A program made the position numbers and the translations under genes. Shown here in pieces: positions 43,699 to 47,235 of a DNA stretch of 64,000 nt. The notes under the pieces are model-generated. The model worked only from the letters and a program-made list of their open reading frames with translations. It did not search any database and had not been told where the DNA came from. Location of the stretch: the NCBI GenBank assembly GCA_003233115.1, contig QIKV01000061.1:889-64888 (forward strand). The letters are read 5' to 3'. This stretch comes from Oceanospirillales bacterium (GTDB lineage: Bacteria > Pseudomonadota > Gammaproteobacteria > Xanthomonadales > SZUA-36). Numbering within the stretch: the stretch's first letter is position 1; every line of letters begins with the position of its first letter.

Positions 43699-44838
43699 CT
43701 AGCGCAAGGGCGGTTGCTGGATCAGGGTTGCGTAAGTTTCAAAAACGCCCGTACTACGCCGTACCTTGAGCGCCACCCGCGTACCAGGTTTGCGCTGAGC
43801 GATGGCCAGTAAAAGCGCCCTGGCATCGTCCACTTCGCCACCATCGATACTCAACAGGACGTCCCCGGCCCTGATGCCGGCGGTCCAGGCTGGGCCGCCG
43901 GAGGTGACATCGCGAACCTGGATGCCGCGGCGCATAGCGCTTCCATCTGTTTGCAATGACAGGGGCAAATCACTGAACAGTGCACCAAGCCAGCCTCTCC
44001 TGACGCTGCCATAGTCAATTATTTGCTGCATGACATCCCTGGCCATCTTAATGGGTATGGCGAAACCGATATTTTGCGCACCCTGTGCCTGGCCCAGGTT
44101 ACGCGTGTTGATACCAATGACCTCGCCGCGGTAGTTGATCAGCGCACCGCCACTGTTGCCGGCATTGATGGCTGCATCGGTCTGGATAAAGTCTTCATAA
44201 AGCACGGACCTGAGGTCATTTCGGCCGGTTGCACTGACGATGCCCATGGTGACGGTATGGCTCAGCCCAAAAGCGTTGCCGATGGCCAGTACAACGTCAC
44301 CCACGCGCACCTTGGCGTCTGTTGCCAGGGGTGCTGCAGGCAAGCCGTCCAGGTCGATCTTAAGCACTGCCAAATCTGTTTCCGGGTCACTGCCGACCAC
44401 CTGTGCCGCGGCGAAGCGCCCGTCCCACAATCCCACACTGATATTCTGTACCTGGCTGATCACGTGATTATTGGTCAATATGTAGCCATCTTCACTCACC
44501 AGCACACCCGAACCCATGTCCGCCCGGGAACGGGCAATATAGGGACTGCCAAGAATTTTTTGGAGCCGCGGGCTGACCGGTTGAAGCTCCACTGTTTTTG
44601 TATATATGCTGACCACCGAGGGGGCAGCGCGGTCAACTGCATCTGCGTATGAAACAGGTGCTGAAGGCGTAACGGCTACGGTTGATCGGTGTGTGGAAAC
44701 GCGCTCAGCGACGCTCGGCCACAGGTACAAGATGATAAATGCCAGTGCCAGGCCCGCAATCACAGAGCGCAATAGAAATCCGGTCAACGATCCTGCTGAT
44801 GTTTTTCTGCCTGAAGTTCGGGGGTCCAGTTGATTCAT
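43699..44838 (-). CDS. S1C trypsin-like serine protease with a PDZ domain (DegS/AlgW-like)
   Basis: N-terminal TM anchor, catalytic His (TNNHV), Asp (DLAVLK) and Ser (GNSGGAL), and one C-terminal PDZ domain. The start is uncertain (44838, 44871 or 44925). Confidence 0.8.
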   Translation of the reverse strand: MNQLDPRTSGRKTSAGSLTGFLLRSVIAGLALAFIILYLWPSVAERVSTHRSTVAVTPSAPVSYADAVDRAAPSVVSIYTKTVELQPVSPRLQKILGSPYIARSRADMGSGVLVSEDGYILTNNHVISQVQNISVGLWDGRFAAAQVVGSDPETDLAVLKIDLDGLPAAPLATDAKVRVGDVVLAIGNAFGLSHTVTMGIVSATGRNDLRSVLYEDFIQTDAAINAGNSGGALINYRGEVIGINTRNLGQAQGAQNIGFAIPIKMARDVMQQIIDYGSVRRGWLGALFSDLPLSLQTDGSAMRRGIQVRDVTSGGPAWTAGIRAGDVLLSIDGGEVDDARALLLAIAQRKPGTRVALKVRRSTGVFETYATLIQQPPLR

Positions 44839-45113
44839 TCCGTCAGTCTTCCGTGGTACAGGGGTTGCCATGAAAATACATGTCCGGGCCTGCTTGCCGA
44901 CCCTATCATGTAATTCTATCGGCAAATCGATTGTTTCGCATGGTGCGTTTCGGATAAACTAAGAGATTGGTACAGGTCAGGGGTGTATTGATGGGTTTGA
45001 GTATCACCATCAAGCGCTCTTTTACTCCCCAGGTCTGAGTGCAAAAATAGGAATTTCCCGAACTGGAACAGGGCACTGGTCCCTGATGGGATACTATCCT
45101 GCTGGAGAATTGA

Positions 45114-45230
45114 ATGTCATCTCATGACGCGAACCAAGGGAGGCGCCGGCCTCCCGTTGCCCCTGCTTCTTATCATTTTCTTACTAACGACACCCCGCTG
45201 GCGGGTGTTGGCCCACGAGGAGCGTTTTAA
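45114..45230 (+). pseudogene. petA: 38-codon in-frame remnant of the Rieske Fe-S subunit gene
   Basis: MSSHDANQGRRR (Tat-type Rieske N-terminus) is fused to PPVAPASYHFLTNDTPLAGVGPRGAF (Rieske C-terminal tail pattern). GGAG RBS. TAATG overlap with the petB start. No [2Fe-2S] CxH/CxxH boxes are present. Confidence 0.6.
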
Positions 45231-46474
45231 TGGCCAAATCTGCAAGTGGTCTTGCCAAACGCGCAAATAACCTGATGAATTGGCTGGATGACCGTCTACC
45301 GATAACCAGTTTCTGGAACGCGGTGATGGTCGGCTATCAGGCTCCGAAAAATTTTAATTTCTGGTATTACATGGGCTCGCTGGCTCTGTTGGTACTGGTC
45401 ATGCAAATCTTTACCGGGATTTTCCTGACCATGTTCTATAAACCTTCTGCTGCGGAAGCCTTTGCATCGGTTGAGTTCATCATGCGCGATGTGGATTGGG
45501 GTTGGTTGATTCGCTATATGCATTCGACCGGCGCTTCATTCTTCTTTATCCTGATATACCTGCATATGTTCCGCAGCCTGTTGTACGGTTCGCACCGTAA
45601 GCCGCGTGAGTTGCTGTGGGTTTTCGGCATGTTTATCTATCTGGCGCTGATGGCCGAGGCGTTTATGGGTTATGTGCTGCCATGGGGTCAGATGTCTTAC
45701 TGGGGAGCGCAGGTCATCATTAACCTGTTTGGTGCGATCCCCAAGATTGGCGAACCGCTGACACAATGGATACGCGGTGACTACTTTCTATCTGACGCAA
45801 CGCTGAACAAGTTTTTTGCCCTGCATGTTATCGCTGTCCCACTGGCTCTACTGGGCCTGGTTTTATTGCATCTGGTGGCGCTGCGTGAGAATGGTTCCAA
45901 CAACCCCGATGGGATAGAAATCAAGGCCAACAAAGGTCCTGATGGCACACCCATTGATGGCATTCCGTTCCATCCCTACTACACAGTCAAAGATATCTTC
46001 GGCGTGGGCATGTTTCTGATATTATTCTCATTTATCCTGTTCATGTGGCCGCAGGTTGGCGGCATGTTCCTCGAGGCCGACAACTTTGTACCGGCCAACC
46101 CGTTGGTGACGCCTGAACATATCAAGCCGGTTTGGTACTTCACCCCGTACTACGCAATCCTGAAGGCAGTCCCGGACAAACTGATGGGTGTGATCATGAT
46201 GGGTGCATCGGTAACCATCCTTTTCTTTCTGCCCTGGCTGGACCGCTCACCGGTTAAGTCCATTCGCTATAAAGGCATGTGGTACAAGGTCTTACTGGGT
46301 GTGTTTACGATAGCTTTTCTCCGTCTTGGCATGCTCGGCATGGCTGAAGGAACACCAGCGCAGACCTGGGAAATGCGTATCTGGACGCTGGTTTACTTCA
46401 TGTTCTTCGTGCTGCTTTATTTTATGAGTCCGGGCGGCAAAACCAAACCGGTACCCGATCGGGTGACGCACTGA
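45230..46474 (+). CDS. petB: Cytochrome b (bc1 complex)
   Basis: Eight-TM cytochrome b with paired His ligands (…RYMHSTGASFFF…, …FALHV…LHLVALRENGSNNP…) and PEWYF-like KPVWYFTPYY. Confidence 0.95.
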   Translation: MAKSASGLAKRANNLMNWLDDRLPITSFWNAVMVGYQAPKNFNFWYYMGSLALLVLVMQIFTGIFLTMFYKPSAAEAFASVEFIMRDVDWGWLIRYMHSTGASFFFILIYLHMFRSLLYGSHRKPRELLWVFGMFIYLALMAEAFMGYVLPWGQMSYWGAQVIINLFGAIPKIGEPLTQWIRGDYFLSDATLNKFFALHVIAVPLALLGLVLLHLVALRENGSNNPDGIEIKANKGPDGTPIDGIPFHPYYTVKDIFGVGMFLILFSFILFMWPQVGGMFLEADNFVPANPLVTPEHIKPVWYFTPYYAILKAVPDKLMGVIMMGASVTILFFLPWLDRSPVKSIRYKGMWYKVLLGVFTIAFLRLGMLGMAEGTPAQTWEMRIWTLVYFMFFVLLYFMSPGGKTKPVPDRVTH

Positions 46475-47235
46475 TGAAAACCTTACAAATTAAAGCCAGG
46501 GCCACCTGTCTGTTTACTGCGGCCGTGCTGTTGCTGGCCGCCAGTTTTTCAGTTGCACTGGCCGGTGAGGCTGGTTTTGAACGATCTGGAGCCAACATTG
46601 AGGACACAGCTTCATTGCAGCGTGGTGCCAAGTGGTACGTTAACTACTGTCTTGGTTGCCACAGCCTGAACTATATGCGCTATAACCGCCTCGCTACAGA
46701 CCTGCAGCTTAGTGATGATGAGGTTATGCAGAATCTGGTTTTTTCCAATGCAAAAATTGGCGATACGATGACAATTGCCATGGATGAGGAGCAGGCGGAA
46801 GATTGGTTTGGCAAGGCCCCTCCTGACCTTTCGCTCATCGGGCGATCGCGGGGGGCAGACTGGCTGTATGCTTATCTGCGTGGTTTCTACAAGGATGAAG
46901 ATGGTAGCTGGAATAACTCGGCTCTGGACAATGTGGCCATGCCGAATGTTTTATGGCGATTACAGGGGATCCAGATCCCGGTGTACCGCGAGGAAACAAC
47001 AGAAGAGGGGTATACGCACGAAGTCCTTGATCACTATGAACTGACCACGCAGGGTACCCAGTCAGCACAAGAATATGAAGAAACTGCCCGCGATCTCGCC
47101 GCATTTCTTGAGTATGTTGGTGAGCCTGCCGCGCTCCAGCGCAAAAGTATTGGCGTGTGGGTGATTTTGTTCCTCGTGCTGTTTACCTTCCTTGCCTATC
47201 TGTTGAAAGTAGAGTATTGGCGAGACGTTCATTAA
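46474..47235 (+). CDS. petC: Cytochrome c1
   Basis: Signal peptide, heme-binding CLGCHS, Met ligand region (…AMPNVL…) and a C-terminal TM anchor. ATGA overlap with petB. Confidence 0.9.
   Translation: MKTLQIKARATCLFTAAVLLLAASFSVALAGEAGFERSGANIEDTASLQRGAKWYVNYCLGCHSLNYMRYNRLATDLQLSDDEVMQNLVFSNAKIGDTMTIAMDEEQAEDWFGKAPPDLSLIGRSRGADWLYAYLRGFYKDEDGSWNNSALDNVAMPNVLWRLQGIQIPVYREETTEEGYTHEVLDHYELTTQGTQSAQEYEETARDLAAFLEYVGEPAALQRKSIGVWVILFLVLFTFLAYLLKVEYWRDVH

Follow-up and report, generated by a model that had tools for sequence, protein, structure and literature searches.

The locus raises two questions: what a 38-codon open reading frame represents when it stands directly in front of the cytochrome b gene of a bc1 operon, at the place where a Rieske gene (petA) would be expected, and how the cytochromes b and c1 encoded behind it could obtain a Rieske subunit. 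The DNA analysed (a stretch of 64,000 nt, hereafter the window) belongs to C1, a 69-kb contig of the draft genome G000, a metagenome-assembled genome of 225 contigs and 3.19 Mb (completeness 94.7%, contamination 5.9%). All sequences compared with it were metagenome assemblies. The reading favoured here, at a probability of roughly 0.6, is a joint one: the short ORF (the stub) is a remnant of petA left by an old deletion, petB and petC are functional, a Rieske protein is supplied in trans by PetA2, the product of a second bc1 operon elsewhere in the genome, and the stub persists as a translated leader.

The stub is followed by petB (414 aa), petC (253 aa), sspA and sspB, and is preceded on the opposite strand by genes for a DegS/DegQ-type protease, dCTP deaminase and an Mrp/ApbC ATPase. 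Features of the locus are given below in window coordinates; L042 and L044 are contigs of a sister lineage described further on.

43699..44838, minus strand: DegS/DegQ-type serine protease gene, divergent, the upstream bound of the locus (Pfam Trypsin_2 and PDZ)
44920..44970, plus strand: upstream block of 51 nt, presumed promoter/operator of the pet operon, 100% identical between the window and L042 and L044
45079..45092, plus strand: candidate hairpin in the pet 5' leader, just 5' of the ribosome-binding site (RBS) (5-bp stem, 4-nt loop; read from alignments)
45104..45107, plus strand: GGAG RBS of the stub ORF, 6 nt before its ATG
45114..45230, plus strand: petA remnant ORF, 38 codons plus stop (ancestral petA codons 1-19 and 180-198)
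45170..45171, plus strand: deletion junction, codon 19 (TCT) joined to codon 180 (TAT), placed by DNA alignments
45219..45222, plus strand: GGAG Shine-Dalgarno of petB, in the stub 3' end, 7 nt before the petB ATG
45228..45232, plus strand: TAATG, overlap of stub stop and petB start (TAA 45228-45230, petB ATG 45230-45232)
45230..46474, plus strand: petB (cytochrome b), intact (PF00033/PF00032; 414 aa)
46474..47235, plus strand: petC (cytochrome c1), intact (PF02167; 253 aa)

The protease gene probably starts at the ATG at 44838, a start conserved in the DNA alignment, and synteny around this gene was identical in all relatives. The 44920..44970 block was also kept in relatives with an intact petA. 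A scan for sigma-70 consensus promoters and terminators returned no plus-strand promoter and no terminator, and did not call this block; an Rfam search of 44800-45300 returned no match at E <= 1. Pairing in the candidate hairpin was kept in relatives, with both sides of the stem changed (GTCCC/GGGAC, GTCCT/AGGAC). At the stub RBS, the stretch CTGCTGGAGAATTGAATG was without variation among the window, the sister lineage and G011, the closest relative that carries petA.

Homology of the stub was assessed by DNA alignment with five genus-mates and by comparison with the translations of 11 full-length petA genes from genus-mates. PetA of the genus-mates is 198 aa long and is encoded at exactly the position of the stub; a 198-codon petA lay directly 5' of petB at every relative locus examined, and canonical petA was present in 23 of the 24 other species genomes of the genus, the exception being a genome only 69% complete. 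A preliminary description of this DNA had reported the 38-codon ORF with its own GGAG ahead of petB, which is present as described, and had likened its two ends to the twin-arginine start and to the C-terminus of Rieske proteins. Both resemblances proved to be true homology, the alignment with PetA of relatives holding at both termini: both halves of the stub aligned base for base with petA of genus-mates, the first 19 codons with codons 1-19 and the last 19 with codons 180-198 of the 198-codon gene. The same description had put the loss at about 150 codons, covering the transmembrane anchor and the [2Fe-2S] domain with the frame kept; the alignments bear this out and set the figure at 160 codons (480 nt, codons 20-179), lost in frame, among them the codons for the membrane anchor and, with its two cluster boxes, for all of the [2Fe-2S] domain. 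Its reading of the stub TAA overlapping the petB ATG as the usual petA-petB coupling also stands, the same TAATG overlap occurring in other species of the genus. Retained were the presumed promoter region, RBS, ATG, 19 N-terminal and 19 C-terminal codons, petB Shine-Dalgarno and TAATG. Microhomology at the breakpoints amounted to 2 nt only (CT), a sequence that suggests no particular deletion mechanism.

As a Rieske protein, the stub product retains signs of descent and little else. Its position is orthologous to that of petA and its sequence can be aligned with it. Of the twin-arginine motif the RR pair remains, the F-L after it having become P-P in the window; the hydrophobic segment is deleted as a whole, leaving no twin-arginine signal with a membrane anchor behind it. 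The peptide contains no cysteine and thus neither cluster box (C-x-H, C-x-x-H) nor the disulfide cysteines. Pfam returned no match for the 38-aa peptide, including none to PF10399 or PF00355, as expected with the anchor and the cluster domain deleted. Judged from its sequence, the stub no longer codes for a functional protein.

The same petA-less layout was found in three independent assemblies from other samples, with a cytochrome b 94% identical to that of the window: L042 (JGI 3300005096, a 43-kb contig), L044 (GCA_006240795.1, NCBI metagenome) and L045 (Logan assembly, SRR14803396). These represent a sister stub lineage known from contigs of 13-43 kb only. By alignment, all three carried the identical junction, with codon 19 joined to codon 180; their stub is still open, at 37 codons after an extra in-frame 3-nt indel, and has the RBS, ATG and TAATG as in the window. 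Exact 24-mer scans for the junction in genome and metagenome contigs returned nothing, the sister junction carrying substitutions and the window's own record perhaps lying outside the set scanned. In a maximum-likelihood tree of petB and petC, the window grouped with L042/L044 (91% support), with G011 (intact petA, L006 = L043) just outside. Because the junction is shared and the tree groups the two lineages, the deletion is placed as a single event in the common ancestor of the window and the sister lineage, after the split from G011, and the divergence between the two lineages therefore falls wholly after it. The stub had 47-58% amino-acid identity to relatives, compared with 76-97% among relatives for the same 38 codons, and the adjacent cytochrome b was 94% identical to that of the closest relative, G011. 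A tblastn search with PetA of relatives found no canonical petA fragment anywhere in the assembly. By these comparisons 45114..45230 is confirmed as a genuine and evolutionarily old petA remnant produced by one in-frame deletion of 480 nt.

Selection was estimated for the interval since the deletion by comparing the window with the sister lineage. For the stub peptide dN/dS was 1.0-1.09, whereas the corresponding codons of intact petA gave 0.05-0.09; because the ratio is about 1.0, the amino-acid sequence of the stub is read as drifting neutrally. For petB it was 0.043-0.051 at a dS of 0.73-0.80 (~0.75), with 0.036-0.037 for pairs with intact petA, and for petC it was 0.13-0.14, with 0.07-0.09 for control pairs. 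By Tajima relative-rate tests against G011, neither PetB nor PetC had accelerated in the window or in the sister lineage (p = 0.13-1.0), neither lineage had stops or frameshifts in petB or petC, and the petB Qo motif PVWY was unchanged in the stub clade. Both the cytochrome b gene and the c1 gene of the window are thus intact and constrained by purifying selection. The best reading of these data is that cytochromes b and c1 of the native operon still work; from the purifying selection, the Qo motif and the conserved upstream block, the operon is likewise best read as still controlled, expressed and needed.

Three further observations concern these genes in the genus. PetC is 253 aa long in the stub clade and 246-248 aa in other species. 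The petC dN/dS is ~1.5 times that of control pairs, yet the relative-rate tests gave no acceleration. Native cytochrome b was split by stops or frameshifts in three genus-mates (G006:C15:215616-216865, G001:C2:624274-625516 and G015:C2:83218-84461), all genomes with few, long contigs; these may be true pseudogenes or a product of indel errors in long reads.

The role of the stub was considered separately from its origin. A new small protein was ruled out by the dN/dS of about 1. In the mechanism proposed, the stub would serve as a short translated leader: its RBS, start, open frame and TAATG would carry ribosomes to the petB start, so that translation of the stub would provide translational coupling to petB and protection from polarity, the peptide itself being without a role. 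It is probably in this capacity only that the stub is retained. Across the two stub lineages the RBS, ATG, petB Shine-Dalgarno and TAATG were invariant and the first 36 nt of the stub were 83% identical, as against 61% in its middle; both the original deletion and the later 3-nt indel of the sister lineage were in frame.

A competing view holds that the stub is a purely neutral relic without function, in which frame, start and overlap persist by chance or through the translation signals of petB. In about 25% of simulated trials, chance alone left both stubs with a start codon and an open frame, and retention of the ORF through substitutions alone was not statistically significant. Moreover, petB has its own good Shine-Dalgarno (the GGAG 7 nt upstream of its ATG, kept in all relatives and in both stub lineages), and coupling may be unneeded; a peptide dN/dS of about 1 is also what a relic would give. 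Against this, conservation of the RBS, the ATG and the first 36 nt clearly exceeds that of the stub's middle part, and two successive indels preserved the frame; the joint chance including both is roughly 0.03, on crude assumptions. A relic without function is accordingly held to have a substantial chance of being right, somewhat short of even. It bears on the role of the stub only and is compatible with the deletion itself as set out above.

Quinol oxidation at the Qo site of bc1 requires the Rieske cluster, and because there is no quinol oxidation without a Rieske protein, the Rieske subunit of the native b1/c1 core must come from elsewhere. A genome-wide tblastn search for PetA, a check put forward in the preliminary description, gave one match, petA2 on contig C30 (42% identity). 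A PF00355 search of the draft (225 contigs) returned four Rieske-domain genes, with the bc1 type on C30 only; the remaining three were a 405-aa ORF, a carboxymuconolactone-decarboxylase-like fusion and an apparent arsenite oxidase small subunit. PetA2 showed every property of a bc1 Rieske protein for which it was tested: both domains (PF10399 at 4e-9, PF00355 at 3e-6), a Tat motif (SKRRFL), an anchor, the cluster boxes CTHLCC and CACHGS, and a position with petB2 and petC2 directly 3'. The C30 operon was complete, with genes for a dihaem cytochrome c4, petA2, petB2 and petC2, and its petB2 product (L003) was 55% identical to the native cytochrome b, with the Qo motif PAWY.

Two side observations arose from these searches. 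At L004 (C103:2923-6216), a 198-aa Rieske protein with a Tat signal is encoded ahead of a large molybdopterin-type subunit, and a dihaem peroxidase-like gene lies upstream of the two; from the ORFs alone, the pair looks like arsenite oxidase aioB-aioA. The Qo motif was PVWY in every native cytochrome b of the genus (window ~46097-46108) and PAWY in every cassette cytochrome b, and native and cassette complexes may not share the same quinol chemistry or may run in different directions.

The second operon had no close homologue in the genus, its best match in other species being 46% identical. On C30 it is flanked by an aminotransferase gene and by a gene for a 602-aa Fe-S flavoprotein that precedes a 2-oxoacid:ferredoxin oxidoreductase. 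These flanking genes were adjacent to each other in relatives, at 71-85% nt identity to C30. The closest public contigs spanning the site (L054 and L056; 79-85% nt identity) had it empty (a further contig, L055, ended before the site), and comparison with these empty sites gave an insertion of 3,550 bp. Imperfect 43-nt direct repeats (77% identity) flank the cassette and were single-copy in the empty sites of L054 and L056.

C30:13376-13418 and C30:16926-16968 (L032:2377-2419 and L032:5927-5969): cassette direct repeats, intergenic sequence

One copy precedes the c4 gene, and the second precedes the native operon downstream of the cassette; the repeat could be a regulatory element duplicated on integration. 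The four-gene block was also found at 77-82% nt identity on the public contigs that carry the nearest homologues of PetA2, namely L039, L040, L046-L050, L138, L139 and L142, whose homology to G000 ended exactly at the block, with unrelated flanks. Because of the syntenic flanks, the empty sites and the occurrence of the block elsewhere among unrelated flanks, C30 is regarded as a genuine contig of the lineage and the cassette, on its sequence context, as having arrived by horizontal transfer. That C30 might be a mis-binned contig had been considered and was rejected, both cassette flanks being syntenic with genus-mates (71-85% nt identity) and the contig also carrying a dispersed repeat of the genus. 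This repeat (L032:7311-7360, C30:18310-18359) is ~50 nt long and REP-like, and occurs in dozens of copies (82-95% identity) in genus-mates.

Some cassette contigs touch on the stub lineages. The flanking gene of L046 had no close match in the genus, and L046 and the stub contig L044 came from the same metagenome. On L141, a histidine kinase gene beside the cassette (L141:13095-14477) had 79% nt identity to G000:C11:41739-43363 and no close match in the other 24 genus genomes; this flank may represent further acquired DNA that both have in common, or may point to a close relative. As links between the cassette and the stub-bearing sister lineage, L046 and L141 are leads only.

Given the continued constraint on petB and petC and the presence of PetA2 as the sole remaining bc1-type Rieske gene, PetA2 is probably the supplier, and by analogy with known Rieske exchange the native PetB and PetC most likely take the Rieske protein of the acquired operon. 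PetA2 would then serve its own b2/c1 core and also the native b1/c1 core. Against this proposal stands the low identity (42%) of PetA2 to the lost PetA1, its fit to the native core being a presumed one. A more far-reaching version, in which the acquired PetA2 is shared by the PVWY and PAWY cores, the gutted petA is selected as a leader, and the arrangement is one of stable sharing and not a stage of loss, is put forward as tentative.

The order of events complicates this supply. To judge by the empty sites, the cassette at the C30 site may postdate the petA deletion and seems specific to G000's own branch. If the cassette did come later than the deletion, some other Rieske source must have served before it. 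Spare Rieske genes were present in the group, because G011 and G018 carry an orphan bc1-type paralogue (PF10399 and PF00355; G011 L021:1459-2175, minus strand, and G018:C5:287836-288402), which is 49% identical to PetA1 and adjoins a gene for an FtsX/MacB-type permease and not one for cytochrome b. An orphan of the G011 type could have bridged the interval before the cassette arrived. The same gene underlies an alternative in which the deletion is real and petB and petC are functional, with the Rieske protein coming from a gene other than petA2, for example an orphan paralogue missing from the 94.7%-complete draft. Its presence in the closest petA-bearing relative, unlinked to cytochrome b, and the late arrival that the empty cassette sites allow are both in keeping with such a source. 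However, tblastn and Pfam searches of all 225 contigs of G000 found neither the orphan gene nor its neighbours, and supply from a gene other than petA2 is considered unlikely.

An inactive native operon, with petB and petC heading for loss and the acquired cassette as its full replacement, is far less probable. The preliminary description had offered inactivity of bc1 as one outcome of a real deletion, and the existence of a complete second bc1 operon and a petC dN/dS modestly above controls (0.13-0.14 vs 0.07-0.09) could be cited in its favour. It is contradicted, and already largely refuted, by the selection analysis: the petB dN/dS of 0.04-0.05 was gathered over a dS of ~0.75 entirely after the deletion, strong constraint on petC persisted as well, neither lineage had stops, frameshifts or rate acceleration, and the Qo motif and the control region were conserved, the latter perfectly.

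That PetB1 and PetC1 function as a novel type of cytochrome b/c1 module, with no Rieske subunit at all, is scarcely credible, and to our knowledge such a module has no precedent. The sister lineage does conserve petB and petC without a demonstrated replacement Rieske, but its contigs of 13-43 kb cannot show absence; the requirement of Qo quinol oxidation for the Rieske cluster stands against the idea, as does the conservation of the Qo motif, which is what a normal site that depends on the Rieske cluster would be expected to show.

An assembly collapse or a minority strain variant in the metagenome, for which the 225 contigs and 5.9% contamination of the draft might speak, can be given almost no credence, since the same junction was recovered in three independent assemblies of a diverged sister lineage from other samples, the retained termini carry many substitutions that a collapse would not create, and no petA fragment lay elsewhere in the assembly. 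Of the three explanations originally offered for the stub, therefore, assembly collapse and population variant are effectively excluded, whereas the shared junction, the decay of the stub and the second bc1-type Rieske gene on C30 support a real in-frame deletion, with the Rieske protein encoded at another place.

Complexes of the bc1 type are usually treated as fixed three-gene units. The lineage described here is long-lived (petB dS ~0.75), with the Rieske gene of its operon destroyed and cytochromes b and c1 fully constrained. If PetA2 does serve both cores, the lineage would provide natural evidence for interchange of Rieske subunits between diverged bc1 complexes, and would indicate that a respiratory operon gained horizontally can trigger a piecemeal, and not a wholesale, loss of the resident operon. 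The implied subunit sharing is testable; the functional steps beyond gene content are deduced from metagenomic sequence. The case also bears on annotation: perfect translation signals on a 38-codon ORF are compatible with a relic that probably has a part in translation only, and a metagenome-assembled genome with petB-petC and no petA need not be misassembled or respiration-deficient.

Compared with canonical proteobacterial petABC (fbcFBC) operons, the native locus has the same gene order, petA-petB TAATG, petB-petC overlap and downstream sspA-sspB, and differs in a petA of 38 codons lacking the anchor and the cluster domain. Acidithiobacillus ferrooxidans also has two complete bc1 gene sets, the operons petI and petII (cycA-sdrA-petA-petB-petC), each with a co-transcribed dihaem cytochrome c4 gene upstream of petABC (PMC2754497). 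The order c4-petA-petB-petC of the C30 cassette matches these operons, the comparison being one of gene order; the cassette is without sdrA or hip, and both A. ferrooxidans operons, unlike those of G000, keep their own petA. The nearest labelled match was a mine-drainage metagenome protein (55% identity). Exchangeable Rieske subunits were shown experimentally in Rubrivivax gelatinosus, and Rieske redundancy is described for Rhodospirillum rubrum (Ouchane et al. 2005, Mol Microbiol 57:261, as cited in PMC6256036). As R. gelatinosus is portrayed through that citation, its genome likewise holds more than one bc1-type Rieske gene, and a Rieske protein encoded outside petABC can replace the operon-encoded one, which is proposed here by analogy. 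On the same account, petA of R. gelatinosus is naturally intact and was removed experimentally, whereas here the deletion is natural, fixed in a clade and has left a stub; and the candidate substitute here is no orphan gene, belonging to a second complete bc1 operon. The arrangement is thus a natural variant of known themes, multiple bc1 operons and exchangeable Rieske subunits, rather than a system of a new kind.
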